A stretch of DNA of 64,000 bases from an uncultured Gemmatimonadota bacterium (GTDB lineage: Bacteria; JAAXHH01). The stretch spans positions 3,616,001 to 3,680,000 of the forward strand of contig OX638340.1 in NCBI GenBank assembly GCA_951812955.1, read 5' to 3'. A program made the position numbers and the translations under genes. The notes below the pieces were generated by a model, which was not told the DNA's origin, ran no database searches, and was given only the letters and a program-made list of their open reading frames with translations. Of the stretch, positions 1,183 through 52,215 are shown piece by piece (within the stretch, counting starts at the first letter, position 1; each line of letters starts with the position of its first letter).

Positions 1183-1653
1183 ATGGAAGGCGGCGGCAGC
1201 GAAGGCTCCTGGCTCAACACGCTCATGGGACAGAACGTTCGGGTTATGACGCCGGGATCCGCCACGGAGGATCGCGTGACGGTCATCGAGGCCGTCGAGC
1301 CGCCCCACAGCTCGCCGCCCGTCTTCACCCGCCACGCCTTCATCGAGATGTTCCTGGTCGTCAGAGGTGCCCTGACGTTTCAGTTTCTACACGAAAGCGC
1401 CTTTGTGATCGAAGCTGGCCAGATGGTGACCGTACCCGGCTACCGGCCCCATTCCTTCTGGAACGAGGGGGACGACCCGGCGGCGGTCATGCTGATCTGC
1501 ACGCCCGCGGGGTTGGACCGGTTCTTCGAGGCTTCCGATCGGCTGCTTCGGCGCATGCCGCCGGACACGACCGATCCCGATGAGTTGAAAGCGGAGATGG
1601 CACGCCTTCGGAAGGAGTTCGGGCTGGAACACGTGGCGCCGGCGCCGCGGTGA
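1183..1653 (+). CDS. Cupin-domain protein
   Basis: AGGAGG lies 6 nt upstream of the ATG. The 156-aa protein has a single cupin-like beta-barrel core (FIEMFLVVRGALTFQF...GQMVTVPGYRPHSFWNEG). Confidence 0.55.
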   Translation: MEGGGSEGSWLNTLMGQNVRVMTPGSATEDRVTVIEAVEPPHSSPPVFTRHAFIEMFLVVRGALTFQFLHESAFVIEAGQMVTVPGYRPHSFWNEGDDPAAVMLICTPAGLDRFFEASDRLLRRMPPDTTDPDELKAEMARLRKEFGLEHVAPAPR

Positions 1654-5864: not shown

Positions 5865-7019
5865 CTATTCCTCCACGGCCCGCAGATCCAGCGCCAGGTC
5901 GCGGAAGCTCCGCACGCGGTGTAGGGTGACCAGGTTGGTGTCGTGCTGGTTCTTGCCGCCGCGCGCGGTGCGGGCGACGACGAGTAGATCGTCTCCGGAG
6001 ATGACCTGCGAGGCGTAGCTGAAGGACTCCATAATGCTCCTGCTCATGGCCACGCATCCGGCCTGGAACCAGTTGAGGGCGTCCATGCTGTACATAAGCA
6101 TTAGGATACGCCGCTCGTTTCCCGGCGGTCCGCTGAAACCGATTCGCCGAAGGGGTTCCCGGTCCTGCCACGGGTTCGTGGACAGGGTCACCGTGGTCCA
6201 GTAGAGACCGCCTTTATCGTCGTGGACGATCTGAAACTTGCACTGGGCGCCCGGCATGGGGTGGAACTGGAGGAAACGGTAGTCGAGGTTCCGACCGTCG
6301 TCCTCGACCCGTCCGATTGATGCCAGGCTCGACGTCGTGTGGCCATCGACGATCGTGCGCATGACCATCCGGATCTCGCCGTCCACCAGCACGATGTTGC
6401 CCTCCAGGAAGCTGTCGGCCGGCACCTTGTCCTTCAGGCTTTCGGGATATTTCCGCTGCGAGAGCACATCGGGGATACCAGGAAACCGGACGTGATTGGA
6501 CATGCGCCAGGCCGCCGGATCCAGGAGGTCTCGCGCCAGGTCGCCGGCCACCACCAGCGACTTCCAGTCGAAACGGCTGGGCGCGTCGCAGGTCTCGAAG
6601 GCGCGGTAGGCATGCCCGTTGTGGATCAATACCGGCGTCGGTGCGCAGTGGTGCTTCCCTTCGAAGAGCGTGACCGGCCCTTCCCAGGTGAAGCCGCCGT
6701 CCCGGGAGCGGCCGATGACGATGTCCCGGCTTTTGCGCTTGTTTCCGATGAGATAGGCGTCGTCCCCGTAGGCCCAGACGGTCGCCCAGATGAAATCCTG
6801 GCACGACGCGAGGGTCCACGTTGCGCCGTCGTCGTCACTGACCAGTACCTCGGTCTGATCCGGCACGGATTCCTTGAGCGGACTGGGACGGAACCATTCG
6901 TAACTGGCCAGCAGGCGTCCCGAGCGCATCCGCGCGATCGACGGTGAACCGGCGTATACGTTCTCCGGGTCGGGTGACGAGGCCAGTACCTGGTAGTCTT
7001 TGGCGAGCATTCGATTCAT
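5865..7019 (-). CDS. BNR-repeat / sialidase-like beta-propeller protein, no signal peptide
   Basis: It has Asp-box motifs SDDDGATW and SRDGGFTW. The N-terminus is not hydrophobic. Confidence 0.6.
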   Translation of the reverse strand: MNRMLAKDYQVLASSPDPENVYAGSPSIARMRSGRLLASYEWFRPSPLKESVPDQTEVLVSDDDGATWTLASCQDFIWATVWAYGDDAYLIGNKRKSRDIVIGRSRDGGFTWEGPVTLFEGKHHCAPTPVLIHNGHAYRAFETCDAPSRFDWKSLVVAGDLARDLLDPAAWRMSNHVRFPGIPDVLSQRKYPESLKDKVPADSFLEGNIVLVDGEIRMVMRTIVDGHTTSSLASIGRVEDDGRNLDYRFLQFHPMPGAQCKFQIVHDDKGGLYWTTVTLSTNPWQDREPLRRIGFSGPPGNERRILMLMYSMDALNWFQAGCVAMSRSIMESFSYASQVISGDDLLVVARTARGGKNQHDTNLVTLHRVRSFRDLALDLRAVEE

Positions 7020-7286
7020 GTCTAACGACCTCCTGGTGATTGGGATGTAAAAACGATTCTACCCGGGTGCAACGCGCTTGTCAACGGGAAGGTACCCGCT
7101 GGATCCGCTCGAAATCGCGCTACCCGAATACGAGAGCGCGAGACCTTCCCATAGTTCTTTACACGCGGCGCCATATTGCCCTTGATCTGAATCGCCCCCG
7201 ACCTGTATCATAGAACCGATCACCAGGACAACCATTCCAGATACGAACATAGCGCATCGAACCGGGTCCGCCGGGAGGATACACTT

Positions 7287-8468
7287 ATGGCCGGAAAAAC
7301 CAACCTGTCCCGCAGAGACTTGCTGATCAAGGGAGGGCTCGCGACGGCCGGCATGGCGCTGCTGCCATCCCACGTACTGGCCCAGTTGGCCCAACTGGCG
7401 CGGGACGAGACGCCCGTGGACTGGATCGATGAATTCGGGCCGCCGCAAAGCCCCGATTTCGTCCTGCTGGACTGGAACGGACTCGAATCTTGGATTACGC
7501 CCGTAGACCAGTTCTTCTCGGCGAGCCACTATCCCGAGCCCACCGTGGCCGGAGAGGGCTACAGCCTGGAGGTTTCCGGCGCGGTAAGACAGAAGCTCAA
7601 TCTGAGCCTCGACGAAATCAAGTCCATGCCGAGCAAAGACGTTATCTTCACCCTCGAGTGCTCGGGTAACCGGGGCGTCCCCGTTTTCAGGGGCGGCGTG
7701 TACAACGCCCGGTGGACCGGCACGCCGCTGGCGCCGATCCTGGAACGGGCAGGGATGTGGGGGAACGGTATCGAGGTGGTTTTCTTCGGACACGATGAAG
7801 GGGTCGAGAACATCACGCCAATTCGAAGCGAACCGCTGGCGATGAAACAGAATTTCGCCCGGTCGCTGACCACGAAACAGGCGATGGATCCGGACATCCT
7901 GCTGGCCTATGAGGTTAACGGACAGACGCTGCCGCCGAAGCACGGATATCCCCTGCGGCTCATCGTACCCGGCTGGTACGGCATCACCCAGGTGAAGTGG
8001 CTGAAACGCATCGAGGTGCGCACTACCCGGTACATGGGCAGGTTCATTTCGCGGGATTACGTCACGGTCCGCGAGGAGACCCACAACGGGGAGACCGTAT
8101 GGCGCCAGGAATCTGTTGGAAAAGGCAGGATCAATTCCGTCACGGCACGGGTCACGCGGGTCGGTCCCCTGCACCGGATCTACGGCGCGGTATGGGGCGA
8201 ACCGCTCAGGGAGGTCCAGGTGCGCATCGATGACGGAGCATGGCAGACGGCCGAAATCATCGAGGGGCTGGACGCCGAACACGCCTGGAAGTTCTGGCGG
8301 TTGGACTGGGACAGGCCTTCAGCGGGCGAGCATACGATCACTTCACGGGGCGTAACGACGGGCGGCACGATACAGCCCGCGCCGGACGATCCCTACCTGG
8401 CCGGCAAGAAGACTTACTGGGAAAGTAACGGCCAGGTGACCCGGACTATTCAGATCTTCGAAAGCTAG
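7287..8468 (+). CDS. Sulfite-oxidase-family molybdopterin oxidoreductase (SorA/YedY-like), Tat-exported
   Basis: GGAGG lies 8 nt upstream. The Tat motif is SRRDLLIKGG. A Moco-Cys block FTLECSGNRG and YPLRLIVPGWYG are present, followed by a dimerisation-domain-like C-terminus. Confidence 0.75.
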   Translation: MAGKTNLSRRDLLIKGGLATAGMALLPSHVLAQLAQLARDETPVDWIDEFGPPQSPDFVLLDWNGLESWITPVDQFFSASHYPEPTVAGEGYSLEVSGAVRQKLNLSLDEIKSMPSKDVIFTLECSGNRGVPVFRGGVYNARWTGTPLAPILERAGMWGNGIEVVFFGHDEGVENITPIRSEPLAMKQNFARSLTTKQAMDPDILLAYEVNGQTLPPKHGYPLRLIVPGWYGITQVKWLKRIEVRTTRYMGRFISRDYVTVREETHNGETVWRQESVGKGRINSVTARVTRVGPLHRIYGAVWGEPLREVQVRIDDGAWQTAEIIEGLDAEHAWKFWRLDWDRPSAGEHTITSRGVTTGGTIQPAPDDPYLAGKKTYWESNGQVTRTIQIFES

Positions 8469-48209: not shown

Positions 48210-48298
48210 TATCTACATTGTATCGACGGCGCATTGTCGGTATCTACGGCAAGAGTGGTATCAACGCCGCAATTGTGGTATCTACGGCGCAATAGTAC
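48209..48298. repeat. Five degenerate ~19-20-nt direct repeats (core GTATCNACGGCGCAATTGTG) between convergent genes
   Basis: Copies start at 48209, 48220, 48240, 48258 and 48278. The first copy abuts the PhyH stop codon (48207-48209). Confidence 0.75.
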
Positions 48299-48335: not shown

Positions 48336-49226
48336 CTATGCCGAAAGCGGCCTGCAGTTTTTACACGGCCGGCATCCGCCGTTCGTTGCGTCCTCCGTAC
48401 TGCTGAATTCAAGGCGGTGCTCCCGCTTGATGCGCCGCGCATCACGGCAGGTGGGGTAACAGTAAATTCCTGTAGTTCGGCTTCCGATGTAGCGTACACC
48501 CCGCTGCTTCCAATTAGCGAGATCTTCCCTCGGTATTCCTTCCCGTTCCAGCAGCGTCCATTTCATTTCCGGACCGTAGTAGTAGTTTCCCACGCCCCCG
48601 GTCGAGGGTACAAGCCGGTGGCAGGGCACCAGGAAGGGAACGGGATTCCGGGCCATGACCGTTCCAACGGCACGGACCGCCTTCGGTCTGCCCACCTCCC
48701 GGGCCAGCCAGGCATAGGGACGGACCTCTCCAGACGGTATCCTGGCCAGGTGTACCAGCACGGTCTGTTCGAATTCGGTAAGTCCCTCAAGGGTAACCGG
48801 TGGCTGAGCGATCTTTTCTCCTCTTATGGCCCGTCTGACTGCCAGGGCGTAGGTTTCCGGCAAGGAACCACGTACTACGGAACGCCCGAGCCTGTCTTTG
48901 TAAAATGACTCGAAGGCGCCGTCCTCCGCCACGTCGAGTTTAACCGCGGATATGCCCTTTGGCGTGAAACCTACGTGCGCCGGCCCGAAATCCGTGTCGA
49001 TGACATCGTACCGATCTGCAATCCTGATCATAACTTCCTCCATGAGCCCCGCGGGGGCGGTCAGTATCAGTTTGGGAGATGCCGCTGCGAGATGCCCCAT
49101 GAATGCGGCCTCTTCGCGGCATGCGGCACACACTTCCAGGTGTTCCACCACGGCCCGGCTCGCCTTATCGTACGCCTCGCCGGTTCTGATTTGATCCAGT
49201 TGCTGTCTTGCTTCGTTACAGTCCAC
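48336..49226 (-). CDS. Cytoplasmic zinc anti-sigma (zf-HC2) domain fused to O6-alkylguanine-DNA alkyltransferase (Ogt/MGMT) and a C-terminal Ada-type Zn-finger
   Basis: The GTG start at 49226 overlaps the sigma stop (GTGGACTGTAA). The ZAS motif is HLEVCAAC. The MGMT block is TEFEQTVLVHLARIPSGEVRPY...AVGTVMARNPVPFLVPCHRLV. The Ada-like block is YCYPTCRDARRIKREHRLEF...GGCRPCKNCRP. No hydrophobic TM segment is present. Confidence 0.75.
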   Translation of the reverse strand: MDCNEARQQLDQIRTGEAYDKASRAVVEHLEVCAACREEAAFMGHLAAASPKLILTAPAGLMEEVMIRIADRYDVIDTDFGPAHVGFTPKGISAVKLDVAEDGAFESFYKDRLGRSVVRGSLPETYALAVRRAIRGEKIAQPPVTLEGLTEFEQTVLVHLARIPSGEVRPYAWLAREVGRPKAVRAVGTVMARNPVPFLVPCHRLVPSTGGVGNYYYGPEMKWTLLEREGIPREDLANWKQRGVRYIGSRTTGIYCYPTCRDARRIKREHRLEFSSTEDATNGGCRPCKNCRPLSA

Positions 49227-49770
49227 TGGGGTCGTCCTCCATGATTTTGCGAAGTCTGCGTAGCGCCCGGTACACCTTGCCCCGCAGCGCCGATTCCGAC
49301 GAACCGGTGACTGCCGCGATATCCGCATAGGTGTATTGCTCGATGAATCGCAGAATGATCAATTCCCGGCTTTCTCTGCCCAGTCTTTCGAGAGCCTTCC
49401 GGATCGCCCTGGCCTGGTCGTTTTGGGGGACGAAGGCCTGCTCTTGAAGGTCGTCCTTCATCCGCTCTACCGCGCCTGTCATGCGTTTGCGCGACCTCAG
49501 CCTGTTCAACGCCAGGTTCCGCACGATGCGGTACAGCCAGGGACGGATTTCGAGCGTCCGGCACCGCTCCGAGTCGTACTTACCGGAGAGTGTTTCGTAG
49601 GCCTTGACAAAGGCTTCCTGCGTAACGTCGAGGGCATCGTCCGAACCACCGAGCATGTGGAAGGCGTAGGTGAAGAGTCTGTCCTTGTATGCCGCCACCA
49701 GGTTTGCCACCGCGCCTCTGTTGCCGCGATGGATTTCCAGCGCGATGCATCGTCCCTCTTCCTGCGTCAT
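49216..49770 (-). CDS. ECF-type sigma-70 family RNA polymerase sigma factor
   Basis: Region 2 has DALDVTQEAFVKAY...WLYRIVRNLALN. Region 4 has ELIILRFIEQYTYADIAAVTGSSESALRGKVYRALRRL. AAGGA lies 6 nt upstream of the ATG. Confidence 0.85.
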   Translation of the reverse strand: MTQEEGRCIALEIHRGNRGAVANLVAAYKDRLFTYAFHMLGGSDDALDVTQEAFVKAYETLSGKYDSERCRTLEIRPWLYRIVRNLALNRLRSRKRMTGAVERMKDDLQEQAFVPQNDQARAIRKALERLGRESRELIILRFIEQYTYADIAAVTGSSESALRGKVYRALRRLRKIMEDDPSGL

Positions 49771-49972
49771 GCAAAGTCCTTTGTTGTCCTGACTACCGTC
49801 CCAGTCACAGATAAAACACCGTCGAGGCGGATTACGTTCGGATCAAAACGAATTCGAGTATCCTTCTTGACAGCTTCTTTGCTGTTTCTTTCCTTACCAA
49901 TAAGATCCTTGTTTTCTTATCTTACTGCACATCAGTCGCAATTCGGCGAAATTCATTGTCCCATCTACGCCA

Positions 49973-50170
49973 ATGCCTCGAAAAGTCAGAGAGCTGATTA
50001 AGGATTTGGTAGATGCGGGATTTGTTGAAACAGGTGGGAAAGGCAGCCATAGGAAATTCACACATGTACGAGTATCGAAAATCGTGGTCCTATCTGGCCA
50101 CCTTGGAGACGATTCGAAAAGCTATCAGGAACAGGCCATTAACGTAGCAATCAAGGAGTCACAGAAATGA
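49973..50170 (+). CDS. hicA: HicA mRNA-interferase toxin
   Basis: The 65-aa protein has RKVRELIKDLVDAGFVETGGKGSHRKFTH, the HicA signature. Confidence 0.8.
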   Translation: MPRKVRELIKDLVDAGFVETGGKGSHRKFTHVRVSKIVVLSGHLGDDSKSYQEQAINVAIKESQK

Positions 50171-50406
50171 AGACGAGTGCTCAATATGTGAAGATAGTGG
50201 AATGGTCAGAAGAGGATCAGTGTTTCGTCGGCAGCTGTCCCGGCCTGCTCTACGGTGGGTGTCATGGTGATAACGAACAGGAAGTGTTCTCCGAGTTATG
50301 CCGGATCGTAGAGGAAACCATAAATTTGTATAGACGAGACGGCCGGTCCCTTCCTTCACCGACATCGGGAAAAGACTACGCCAATAAAATGCTGGATATC
50401 GTCTGA
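50167..50406 (+). CDS. hicB: HicB-family antitoxin
   Basis: It has an ATGA overlap with hicA. YVKIVEWSEEDQCFVGSCPGL...GDNEQEV matches the HicB/UPF0150 N-domain pattern. Confidence 0.7.
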   Translation: MKTSAQYVKIVEWSEEDQCFVGSCPGLLYGGCHGDNEQEVFSELCRIVEETINLYRRDGRSLPSPTSGKDYANKMLDIV

Positions 50407-50424: not shown

Positions 50425-52215
50425 CTACCCGCCTCCCCCTAGCACCCTCTCCCAGAATCCGGACGATCCAGAGTTCCGATTCCCATCCTCGGCGATGTAG
50501 ATCGTGAAGGCCGTGTTCCCGATCTGCTCGCCCCGCCAGGACCGGAATCCCCTGCGGTTCGGTTCGAGGGCGTCTCCCCGGATGTCCGATTTCCATATCT
50601 GGTTCATCGTTGGGTACCACACGAACAGACCGCCGACCTCCTCCACCAGGATCCGCTCGGCCTGCCGGTAGACGTCCATGCGCTTTCCGTGGTCACCGAC
50701 CACGCCGCCCGCCTGGACCACGAGCCGGTCGAAGAGATCGTGTTTCCAGGCGTGTCGGCCGGAGGATAGCCACAGGTTCATCAGGCTGCTGGGATCGATG
50801 AAGTCGGCCCCGAAACGGACAAGGCCCAGGGGAAGCTGGTGGCTGTTGATCGCGTCCATGAAGATCTTGACCTCCATGTTCCGCACCACCAGTTCGATCC
50901 CCAGGTTCTGCTTGATCATGGCTTGGATCGCCTCGCCCGCCTCGTGTACCGGACGCACGTCGCGCCGGACCCACATTTCCACCCGCGGGAATCCCTTACC
51001 GTCCGGATAACCCGCTTCGGCCAGCAGCTTGCGGCCCAGTGCGGGGTCGTATCGCTGGATGGGCTTCAGCGCTTCCGTCGCATCTGCCGGGAAACCGGGC
51101 GGCAGCATGGAGTAGGCCGGTGTCGCGAAGCCCTGCAGTGCGGAATTGCAGACGGCGTTCCGGTCGATGGAGTGGCTGAAGGCCTGGCGGACCTTGAGGT
51201 TGTTGAAGGGCGGGTTGTACGTGTCCATCGTGAGGTAGTAGGTGGCGAAGTCGGTGTATGAGTGCAGTTCGCCGTTCAGCTTCGGATCGGTCTTAATCCG
51301 GGCGAGCTCCGCGTTGTTTGTGATGAGGGCGAAGTCGATCTCGTCCGCCTCGTAGGAGGCGAGCAGGGGCGGCGGTGTCGACGCGTTGTACAACTTGGCT
51401 ATAATCGTTTCCAGGTAGGGGCGCGCGGCGCCGTGGTACCTCGGATTGGCCTTGAGCACGACGCGGTCGGCCTTGGTCCATTCCTCCAGGTAGAACGGTC
51501 CGCTGGCGATGGAAGTCTCTGAGCTGGTGGACCAGGTGTCGCCGTGCTTCTCGACCGCCTGGCGGGGAGAGACCCAGCTGTCGACCATCAGGTCAGGCAT
51601 GTAGGCGCAGGGTTCGTCGGTCTCGATCAGCAGGGTGTAATCGTCGATCGCGTGCACACCGAGCGAGTCGAGGGGAAGCTCCCGGCCGACTACCCTGCTC
51701 CAGTTTTTGATCGGCCGGTAGTACCACTCCACGTCGTAGGCGTTTTCCGGGTCGGCCCCGCGACGCAGGGTGAAGACCCAGTCGTGGGCGGTCAGCGGTT
51801 TGCCGTCGGAAAACTCCAGGTCGTCGCGGAGATAGAAGTACCAGCCCAGTCCGTCGGCAGTGGGCTCCCAGCTGTTCGCCGCCGCCGGGATCAGGTTGAA
51901 ATCCTTGTCAAATCGAATAAGCGGTTCCGCGATGATCCGGTGGCCGTAGGTGCCCTTGTAGATCGTGCGGAACCATTCCATGTAGGTGTTGTCGAGCTGG
52001 AACAGGCGGACGTACTGCTCCGAAGGAGGCGCCGCGTCGGGGGGCAGCGTAACGCCCGCGGAATTAACGTAGCGCGCGGACTGCCCGGACTGCCCGGACT
52101 GCCCGAACTGCCCGGATGTCCCTGACTGCCGGTCGACTGCCAGGACATGCAGGATCCCTGCCGCGGTGGCGCAGCAAACCAGGATGATAGCAATAGCGCG
52201 GGCAGTTGAGATCAT
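50425..52215 (-). CDS. ABC-transporter substrate-binding protein, family 5 (peptide/opine/nickel type), with no cognate permease or ATPase in the window
   Basis: It has an N-terminal signal anchor. AANSWEPTADGLGWYFYLRDDLEFSDGKPLTAHDWVFTLRR is the SBP_bac_5 pattern. A 9-nt repeat encodes (SGQ)n after the signal anchor. Confidence 0.8.
   Translation of the reverse strand: MISTARAIAIILVCCATAAGILHVLAVDRQSGTSGQFGQSGQSGQSARYVNSAGVTLPPDAAPPSEQYVRLFQLDNTYMEWFRTIYKGTYGHRIIAEPLIRFDKDFNLIPAAANSWEPTADGLGWYFYLRDDLEFSDGKPLTAHDWVFTLRRGADPENAYDVEWYYRPIKNWSRVVGRELPLDSLGVHAIDDYTLLIETDEPCAYMPDLMVDSWVSPRQAVEKHGDTWSTSSETSIASGPFYLEEWTKADRVVLKANPRYHGAARPYLETIIAKLYNASTPPPLLASYEADEIDFALITNNAELARIKTDPKLNGELHSYTDFATYYLTMDTYNPPFNNLKVRQAFSHSIDRNAVCNSALQGFATPAYSMLPPGFPADATEALKPIQRYDPALGRKLLAEAGYPDGKGFPRVEMWVRRDVRPVHEAGEAIQAMIKQNLGIELVVRNMEVKIFMDAINSHQLPLGLVRFGADFIDPSSLMNLWLSSGRHAWKHDLFDRLVVQAGGVVGDHGKRMDVYRQAERILVEEVGGLFVWYPTMNQIWKSDIRGDALEPNRRGFRSWRGEQIGNTAFTIYIAEDGNRNSGSSGFWERVLGGGG
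52078..52122. repeat. 9-nt in-frame tandem repeat (ggactgccc, 3 perfect plus 2 degenerate copies) in the SBP gene
   Basis: The tract is ggactgccc ggactgccc ggactgccc gaactgccc ggatgtccc. It encodes GTSGQFGQSGQSGQS on the minus strand. Confidence 0.85.

Follow-up and report, generated by a model that had tools for sequence, protein, structure and literature searches.

The adaptive response to alkylation is, in its textbook case, built on one protein, Ada, a DNA-binding activator that is activated by methylation; in Escherichia coli it is methylation of Cys38 that switches the activity of Ada. In the locus described here, both acceptor domains of Ada are combined with an anti-sigma domain instead. 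The locus lies on the minus strand of a stretch of 64,000 nucleotides from an uncultured Gemmatimonadota bacterium (assembly GCA_951812955.1, contig OX638340.1, positions 3,616,001 to 3,680,000), which was analyzed as a whole and is referred to below as the window. It comprises a gene for an extracytoplasmic function (ECF) sigma factor and, overlapping its end, a gene for a predicted fusion protein that consists of a zinc-containing anti-sigma (ZAS) domain (the N-domain), an O6-alkylguanine-DNA alkyltransferase (Ogt or AGT) and an Ada-type zinc domain (Ada_Zn). An earlier note on this DNA had read the arrangement as a possible alkylation-sensing sigma switch.

With E. coli Ada the fusion protein shares both suicide acceptors, i.e., the Cys4 zinc domain and the transferase with its PCHR motif, and the repair reaction as signal and autoregulation of the own gene are proposed for it as well. 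The order of the acceptor domains is reversed, however (Ogt first, zinc domain last), and the protein has no AraC-type helix-turn-helix (HTH) but an anti-sigma domain instead. Because this HTH is absent, it cannot be a DNA-bound activator like Ada; its output would be the release of a sigma factor and its signal the loss of an inhibitor, whereas Ada works by the gain of an activator. From its domains and its structural model it may be described as a soluble 'Ada without its DNA-binding output', made of an RsiW-like domain, an alkyltransferase and a Cys4 domain. The SigW-RsiW pair (PDB 5wuq) matches both partners best in sequence and in fold, and RsiW has the same zinc site, but it is a membrane protein that is inactivated by regulated proteolysis from outside, whereas the fusion protein is soluble and carries two DNA-repair domains. 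SigR-RsrA of Streptomyces coelicolor and SigE-ChrR of Rhodobacter sphaeroides resemble it in that their cytoplasmic ZAS anti-sigma factors release the sigma factor after a chemical event, as is proposed for the fusion protein; the event is a covalent thiol modification in RsrA, and ChrR, like the fusion protein, has a separate C-terminal sensor domain. The difference lies in the sensor, which is the zinc site in RsrA and a cupin in ChrR, and which would here be an enzyme active site that takes the alkyl group from DNA. The fusion protein can be seen as a cytoplasmic ZAS anti-sigma factor with a new enzymatic input module or, equivalently, as an Ada-type sensor with a new output.

Related loci occur in a long form with the anti-sigma domain, as in the window, and a short form that lacks its zinc site. 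Of the groups of the ECF classification 2.0 (Casas-Pastor et al. 2021), ECF122 is covered by a single line of a review (PMC8999054), which lists conserved 6-O-methylguanine DNA methyltransferase neighbours, no anti-sigma factor, an unknown mechanism and an example from Cellulomonas. The actinobacterial short-form loci fit this published description, by which alone they were compared; the gene that follows the window sigma gene (+1) contains PF01035 (1e-25), as the ECF122 neighbours do, which is the sole part of the description compared for the window. ECF122 differs in that the review lists it without an anti-sigma factor and with an actinobacterial example, whereas the partner in the window has a full class I anti-sigma domain and belongs to a Gemmatimonadota/Latescibacterota-like lineage of metagenome-assembled genomes (MAGs). 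The earlier note had known of no characterised example. None was found in the literature searched, but the association itself is catalogued as ECF122 (PMC8999054), and a sigma factor gene with two MGMT genes is listed in streptozotocin clusters (PMC12224297). The searched literature did not describe the long form, in which the anti-sigma domain is complete, and a 2023 review of the AGT family mentions no sigma or anti-sigma fusions (PMC10779285).

Organization of the locus

The features of the locus are given below in the direction of transcription; residues of the fusion protein (296 aa) are numbered from the GTG at 49226, and structural models are from AlphaFold2 (AF2).

49815 to 49840, minus strand: ECF-type promoter CGAACGTAATCCGCCTCGACGGTGTT, -35 element CGAAC at 49840-49836, -10 element GTGTT at 49819-49815, 44 nt upstream of the sigma ATG
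49216 to 49770, minus strand: gene of the ECF sigma factor (184 aa), which has only regions 2 and 4 (Pfam, NCBIfam)
49216 to 49226, minus strand: 11-nt overlap GTGGACTGTAA between the last codons of the sigma gene and the start of the anti-sigma gene (shared by most long-form loci)
48336 to 49226, minus strand: anti-sigma/alkyltransferase fusion gene, 296 aa, product predicted to be soluble (AF2 model with a predicted local distance difference test score (pLDDT) of 91 and a predicted TM-score (pTM) of 0.74)
49002 to 49226, minus strand: class I zinc anti-sigma domain, residues 1-75 (profile, Pfam, Foldseek)
48786 to 49019, minus strand: N-terminal RNase-H-like domain of the alkyltransferase, residues ~70-147 (1sfe alignment, AF2)
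48534 to 48776, minus strand: catalytic/DNA-binding domain of the O6-alkylguanine-DNA alkyltransferase, residues 151-231 (Pfam PF01035, DNA_binding_1, 1e-25)
48348 to 48500, minus strand: Ada N-terminal-type Cys4 zinc domain, residues 243-293 (Pfam PF02805, Ada_Zn_binding, 8e-10)

The sigma factor has the composition of group IV ECF sigma factors (regions 2 and 4, about 180-200 aa). It matched Sigma70_r2 (7e-14), Sigma70_r4_2 (1e-11) and also Sigma70_ECF in Pfam, and TIGR02937 in NCBIfam with 83.8 bits (cut-off 42.9); its closest solved relative was SigW (5wuq_A, 62 bits). The 3' end of the gene reads GAC CCC AGT GGA CTG TAA, with the TAA at 49218-49216, and the GTG start codon of the fusion gene occupies 49226-49224, with GGAGGA 8 nt upstream. 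The program-listed open reading frame (ORF) of the fusion reaches back to an ATG at 49328; this start was rejected in favour of the GTG because homologues begin with MxC and the 11-nt overlap is conserved in most long-form loci. Two statements of the earlier note hold here: the sigma gene does end over the downstream GTG, with 11 nt in common, and a transmembrane segment is absent from the fusion protein, whose highest Kyte-Doolittle 19-residue mean is 1.08 and whose AF2 model is wholly globular.

A scan of GTDB (one genome per species) gave 439 relatives of the fusion protein, of which the loci of the best 80 were examined. In 79 of the 80, the immediately preceding gene in the same orientation encodes an ECF sigma factor, and stop and start of the two genes overlap; this coupling is conserved in at least six phyla. 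The overlap is of the -11 type in most long-form loci and is an ATGA (-4) in short-form loci; from the arrangement of the codons, translational coupling of the two genes is predicted. The single exception, L028, encodes a protein without an N-domain and has no upstream sigma gene. This gene (L028:5983-6681, Gemmatimonadota) consists of Ogt and Ada_Zn alone, so the two-domain repair protein also exists by itself.

Long and short forms

The long form was present at 42 of the 80 loci, with about 296 aa, the anti-sigma domain and usually the 11-nt overlap. Its carriers were Gemmatimonadota/Latescibacterota-type MAGs, Acidobacteriota (Thermoanaerobaculia), some Chloroflexota and Zixibacteria; the search for the same domain architecture proposed in the earlier note has thus recovered the fusion at ~296 aa from several phyla. 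A protein search gave 1656 relatives, and among the best 120, which were inspected, many combined zf-HC2, DNA_binding_1 and Ada_Zn_binding at ~296 aa (from Gemmatimonadetes, Acidobacteriota and Zixibacteria MAGs); the architecture was also seen in more than 100 metagenomic proteins from different projects. An exact-sequence look-up of the window protein gave no record; it is 94% similar to the protein of L001 (OY762445.1), and a Gemmatimonadetes metagenome bin carries a fusion protein with ~90% similarity.

The short form was present at 37 of the 80 loci, with about 255-290 aa and the ATGA overlap, in Chloroflexota (including the cultured Thermogemmatispora), Acidimicrobiia and other Actinomycetota. 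A check from the sigma side gave the same picture for homologues from cultured actinomycetes: each of the four that were looked at was followed by an Ogt+Ada_Zn gene with a 4-nt overlap. The alignment of short-form proteins with the window protein begins only at about residue 40-55; they therefore lack helices 1 and 2 of the anti-sigma domain and keep the end of helix 3 and helix 4. Although the anti-sigma zinc site is missing from them, sigma coupling, promoter, PCHR and Ada Cys4 cluster have all been preserved. The window sigma factor shows 29-39% identity to short-form sigma factors over the segments aligned by BLAST; this identity, together with the related promoters (see below), indicates that both forms belong to one wider family.

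The anti-sigma domain

The helices of the N-domain comprise residues 3-14, 20-32, 34-53 and 61-69 in the AF2 model of the full protein, which was built with 83 homologues (61-73 for the last in a model of the N-domain only), and the fourth helix runs directly into the first strand of the transferase. The zinc anti-sigma motif HLEVCAAC pointed out in the earlier note is indeed present (residues 29-36); the fourth ligand, which it had missed, is C3, 26 residues before H29. The ligands C3, H29, C33 and C36 correspond to C3, H30, C34 and C37 of Bacillus subtilis RsiW, and the domain combines the ZAS motif (H-x3-C-x2-C with an upstream Cys) with the four-helix fold, in which helix 4 is added to a bundle of three.

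A profile of 33 N-terminal domains was compared with all PDB sequences and matched RsiW (5wuq_C) with 3.9e-7 over residues 1-69, i.e., over all four helices. The further matches were RslA (7e-4), DdvA (2e-3), ChrR (5e-3) and RsrA (0.15), all of them solved anti-sigma factors. Pfam zf-HC2 matched 32 of the 33 domains (best 1e-9), whereas the window domain alone scored 13.8 bits, below the cut-off of 22.2 (E=0.066). A weak match to the NCBIfam RsrA model (TIGR03988, residues 2-70) reached 16.4 bits, below the equivalog cut-off of 62.5. In Foldseek searches, the full model matched RsiW in its complex with SigW (5wuq) with a TM-score (TMt) of 0.74 and a root-mean-square deviation (rmsd) of 2.4-2.6, and the only meaningful PDB matches of the N-domain model were RsiW and MucA-cyto, both of them sigma-bound anti-sigma factors; across models the TM-score to RsiW was 0.64-0.74, with E-values that are weak (0.03-0.3) for a helical domain of 75 residues. 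Profile and predicted fold identify the N-domain as a true class I zinc anti-sigma domain, RsiW-like in type, and the sigma factor and the fusion protein are predicted to be a cognate ECF sigma/anti-sigma pair. Binding between the two is probable from their adjacency and overlap in 79 of the 80 loci.

The zinc ligands are invariant in a set of 74 sequences outside the closest clade. Within this clade, ~14 of 23 relatives lack one or more of C3, H29, C33 and C36, which were lost in several ways; the window protein and about nine other close relatives retain all four. Ligand loss was seen at L004-L006, L008-L016 and L023 (e.g., HLERCADIRE, QLEASADCRE and HLEGRADSRE). In these relatives, too, none of sigma coupling, promoter, PCHR and Ada Cys4 cluster has been lost.

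The alkyl acceptor domains

The alignment with the C-terminal domain of E. coli Ada (1sfe) spans residues 69-230, and since it begins at residue 69, the N-terminal Ogt domain is present as well; residues ~70-147 show its beta-beta-beta-alpha pattern in the AF2 model. Foldseek matched 1sfe to the full model with E=9e-12 and a TMt of 0.79, and the score against TIGR00589 was 85.8 bits (cut-off 46.4). The PCHR motif is at residues 201-204, with the codon of the acceptor Cys202 at 48623-48621. Human AGT Y114, R128, N137, C145, H146, R147, Y158 and E172 correspond to Y171, R185, N194, C202, H203, R204, Y215 and E229, which are invariant in the 83 homologues. An identity as an alkyltransferase-like (ATL) protein was excluded by the presence of the acceptor cysteine.

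The C-terminal zinc domain scored 39 bits against PF02805 (cut-off 23) over profile positions 15-64 of 65, and a short helix (residues 233-242) precedes it in the model. N-terminal Ada (1adn/1u8b) was matched with 5e-7 (residues 247-294 to Ada 29-75); in Foldseek, methylated N-terminal Ada on DNA (1u8b_A) was matched with 42% identity and an rmsd of 2.3. C256, C260, C288 and C291 correspond to Cys38, Cys42, Cys69 and Cys72 of Ada and are all invariant, C256 taking the position of the methylphosphotriester acceptor, whereas C285 in GGCRPC is not conserved. A match to HTH_18/AraC was not found in a Pfam scan of the fusion protein, and the full-length Ada equivalog NF011964 was matched with 99 bits only (cut-off 345).

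The earlier note had described a complete O6-alkylguanine alkyltransferase with PCHR, followed by an Ada-like Cys cluster. Both descriptions were correct: the alkyltransferase has its two domains and the equivalents of all catalytic residues, and the cluster is an Ada_Zn_binding domain with four invariant cysteines. By these residues the alkyltransferase is predicted to be complete and catalytically intact, and both methyl-acceptor domains are predicted to be intact.

Promoter and probable autoregulation

The earlier note had pointed to the region upstream of 49770 as the place of an ECF promoter motif, and CGAAC-N16-GTGTT was found there at 49815-49840. Of 40 long-form loci, which include all phyla with this form, 35 have the exact pattern in the 200 nt that precede the sigma gene, and 38 have it if one base is relaxed; only ~3 stray copies occur in 1 Mb of locus DNA. 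Short-form loci have GCAAC-N16-G(G/T)GTT (31 of 33), mostly 10-12 nt before the start codon, a spacing which suggests that their transcripts are leaderless. No sigma-70-type promoter was found upstream of the window sigma gene in a scan of 49771-49972. Promoters of the SigR type read GGAAT-N18-GTT, which the GAAC-N18-GTT of the window resembles. Since this promoter of the ECF type (GAAC / GTT-CGT) precedes the sigma gene in several phyla with a fixed N16 spacing, the sigma factor very probably transcribes its own operon, i.e., is subject to positive autoregulation.

The other exact match in the window (1216-1241, minus strand) was taken as due to chance; it lies inside a plus-strand ORF, and no minus-strand gene follows it. 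In Chloroflexota short-form loci, the sigma coding region contains a second GCAAC-N16-G(G/T)GTT, ~300 bp further downstream (L046:5664-5689, L048:5637-5662, L049, L056, L058, L060, L065, L069, L071 and L075). It may be an internal promoter for the Ogt-Ada gene without full-length sigma factor, or a single inherited chance match.

Repair genes and N-nitrosourea clusters

At L029 and L031 (Chloroflexota) the next gene in the operon is an Ogt-Ada_Zn paralogue without an anti-sigma domain (L029:6898-7698, confirmed by Pfam; L031 about 6596-7678), an arrangement that resembles a sensor copy with an effector copy behind it. Kutzneria and Streptomyces have a second, plain AGT gene after Ogt+Ada_Zn, and in Streptomyces there is also a PF09859 'Oxygenase-NA' 2-oxoglutarate (2OG) oxygenase (AlkB-like). 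The Streptomyces short-form locus is the streptozotocin (szn) cluster: the adjoining haem-oxygenase-like/cupin protein is SznF (PDB 6m9r, E=0, full length), and the short-form promoter there is GCAAC-N16-GGTGTT. The unit in this cluster resembles that of the window in its sigma/Ogt-Ada_Zn composition and promoter type; it differs in that it has no helices 1-3 in its anti-sigma part and stands in a toxin-producing cluster, beside SznF, whereas the window unit stands alone between unrelated genes.

The streptozotocin cluster is reported to have been found via DNA-repair genes and to encode AlkB and AGT homologues (PMC8264950), which are regarded as self-resistance genes (PMC9040887), streptozotocin being a DNA-methylating nitrosourea. 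For such clusters, a sigma factor gene, a 2OG oxygenase gene and two MGMT genes are reported (PMC12224297); no published role for this sigma factor was found. Because of the extra AGT and AlkB-like genes in its operons and its location in the streptozotocin cluster, the sigma/Ogt-Ada_Zn family is, by genomic context, tied to protection against DNA methylation.

Short-form units were seen inside or beside streptozotocin-type N-nitrosourea clusters in Streptomyces sp. (L089:6001-12597 and L090) and in Kutzneria albida (L087, CP007155.1), with genes for SznF, a protein arginine methyltransferase (PRMT)-like methyltransferase, Rieske and ATP-grasp proteins, a second AGT and a PF09859 oxygenase as neighbours. 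Extra promoter copies of the sigma type precede an ATP-grasp gene (L089:12125-12150) and an amidase gene (L087:122-147, minus strand), so the sigma factor may also drive biosynthetic genes in these clusters.

Proposed mechanism and alternatives

Without damage, the fusion protein would sequester the sigma factor one-to-one, translational coupling helping to set the ratio. When DNA is methylated, it would repair it by suicide transfer onto Cys202 and/or the zinc-bound Cys256, and the irreversibly alkylated protein would lose its hold on the sigma factor, either through opening or proteolysis of the alkylated transferase fold or because the neutralised zinc site alters the protein's interactions. 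Alkylated AGT opens up and is then degraded in humans, mice, yeast and archaea, which is not established for bacteria (PMC10779285). The freed sigma factor would transcribe from CGAAC-N16-GTGTT, at least its own operon, and new fusion protein would replace the spent one and re-capture the sigma factor, whereby the response would reset itself.

Alkylation-triggered release is the step we infer from the combination of domains, and the scheme as a whole, a self-contained, positively autoregulated ECF sigma/anti-sigma module in which the alkylated fusion protein releases the sigma factor, is judged to have an even chance of being correct. Somewhat more doubtful is the wider proposal that each methyl group removed, from O6-methylguanine or a methylphosphotriester, inactivates one inhibitor and frees one sigma factor, in an adaptive response that extends over at least six phyla and was recruited for the regulation of self-resistance in streptozotocin producers. 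Regarding the interpretation in the earlier note, according to which methyl transfer onto the fusion protein could release the sigma factor, the pairing, the intact acceptor domains, the multi-phylum conservation and the alkylation context speak for it; its version with the zinc-thiolate of the anti-sigma domain as the modified site is weakened. Since the zinc ligands were lost in ~14 of 23 close relatives and the site is absent from the short form, whereas the acceptor cysteines are never lost, the sensor would be the acceptor domains rather than the anti-sigma zinc site, and direct sensing by the latter is disfavoured by this pattern.

Several points weigh against alkylation-triggered release of a sequestered sigma factor. 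In class I anti-sigma domains, helices 1-3 normally bind region 4 of the sigma factor; the short form lacks these helices, so that binding there would have to differ or be weak, and the ancestral link between sigma factor and Ogt-Ada need not have been sequestration. No second credible copy of the promoter was found in the 64-kb window. Neighbour clustering over the 80 loci gave no neighbour gene that is conserved across phyla, and all long-form carriers found are uncultured.

The first alternative is a constitutive brake, in which the anti-sigma domain sets a homeostatic level of the repair protein and induction comes from general proteolysis, another regulator or read-in transcription. Autoregulated sigma/anti-sigma pairs can serve as simple feedback loops, promoter scans of the window and the loci gave no regulon beyond the operon, and the standalone Ogt-Ada_Zn protein of L028 shows that the enzyme needs no regulatory role. 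This is nevertheless considered unlikely, as it leaves unexplained why solely this suicide enzyme is fused or coupled to a sigma factor in at least six phyla, and why extra, unfused AGT copies lie downstream in the same operons.

Alternatively, the C3/H29/C33/C36 site could sense thiol-reactive electrophiles or oxidants and release the sigma factor as in RsrA, with Ogt-Ada as a repair enzyme that is merely made together with it. Zinc-thiolates are good nucleophiles, and RsrA-type anti-sigma factors respond to thiol modification; the window protein has all four ligands in the spacing of RsiW and RsrA, and they are invariant outside the closest clade. The relatives that lost ligands have nonetheless retained sigma coupling and promoter, the short form has no such site, zinc is structural and not a sensor in many anti-sigma domains such as RsiW, and the RsrA model was matched far below its cut-off (16.4 against 62.5 bits), which renders this reading quite improbable.

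That the N-domain is no anti-sigma domain at all but a zinc finger for DNA binding or oligomerisation, next to the sigma gene for co-expression only, might be argued from the zf-HC2 score of the window domain (13.8 bits against 22.2, E=0.066) and the weak Foldseek E-values (0.03-0.3). It is very improbable in view of the family profile, which matches RsiW over four helices and four other solved anti-sigma factors, the zf-HC2 matches of 32 of the 33 homologues, the restriction of meaningful fold matches to sigma-bound anti-sigma factors, and the stop/start overlap with the sigma gene in 79 of 80 loci. A joining of separate genes by an assembly or frameshift error, which the earlier note had considered, is excluded for practical purposes by the uninterrupted ~296-aa ORF in 42 independent GTDB genomes and more than 100 metagenomic clusters, and where the domains meet, AF2 models the chain with confidence.

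If release of the sigma factor by the alkylated fusion protein is correct, this would be the first case of an anti-sigma factor that inactivates itself by enzymatic turnover. The cell would count the consumption of its repair protein and replace it, in an Ada-like response on a different transcriptional principle, and the switch would terminate itself as new inhibitor replaces the spent one, whereas Ada is without such a built-in reset. The mechanism would also explain ECF122, catalogued under 'unknown mechanism', and account for the sigma gene of streptozotocin-type clusters, which has so far been without an explanation. AGT chemistry underlies the SNAP-tag, so it is conceivable, as a speculation, that a sigma factor held by an AGT fusion might be released by benzylguanine-type compounds and serve as an orthogonal chemical transcription switch or a biosensor for alkylating agents.

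Neighbouring genes

The neighbours of the window unit are a gene for a HicA-type toxin and a convergently oriented gene for a PhyH dioxygenase, behind which lie genes for a DnaJ-domain protein and TenA. The HicA-type gene (Pfam 6e-10) overlaps by 4 nt a 79-aa ORF without a Pfam match, which presumably encodes the antitoxin; both (49973-50406, plus strand) are divergent from the sigma promoter, and the pair was not seen at the matching position in L081-L086. The PhyH/DnaJ/TenA synteny is common to these P0050 loci (fusion protein 53% identical) and gives no functional clue. L081-L086 additionally carry an Endonuclease V gene adjoining PhyH; AGT-EndoV fusions are known from archaea (PMC10779285).

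Synteny was found at the level of lineages only, with PhyH, DnaJ and solute-binding protein genes in the close clade, an EamA transporter gene in Chloroflexota and a LigD-like gene in Acidimicrobiia. The latter, recognized by eye as LigD primase-polymerase-like, lies 1-3 genes downstream on the same strand at L044, L045, L047, L052, L057, L061, L072 and L080.

A 20-nt tandem array (48220-48293, 3.8 copies, consensus GTATCTACGGCGCAATTGTG, core GCCGTAGATACC) takes up most of the 126 nt that separate the convergent anti-sigma and PhyH genes, and a terminator scan of this gap gave no terminator-like hairpin. A family-5 solute-binding protein gene (50425-52215, minus strand) encodes a short SGQFGQSGQSGQS repeat just past the signal/anchor segment.

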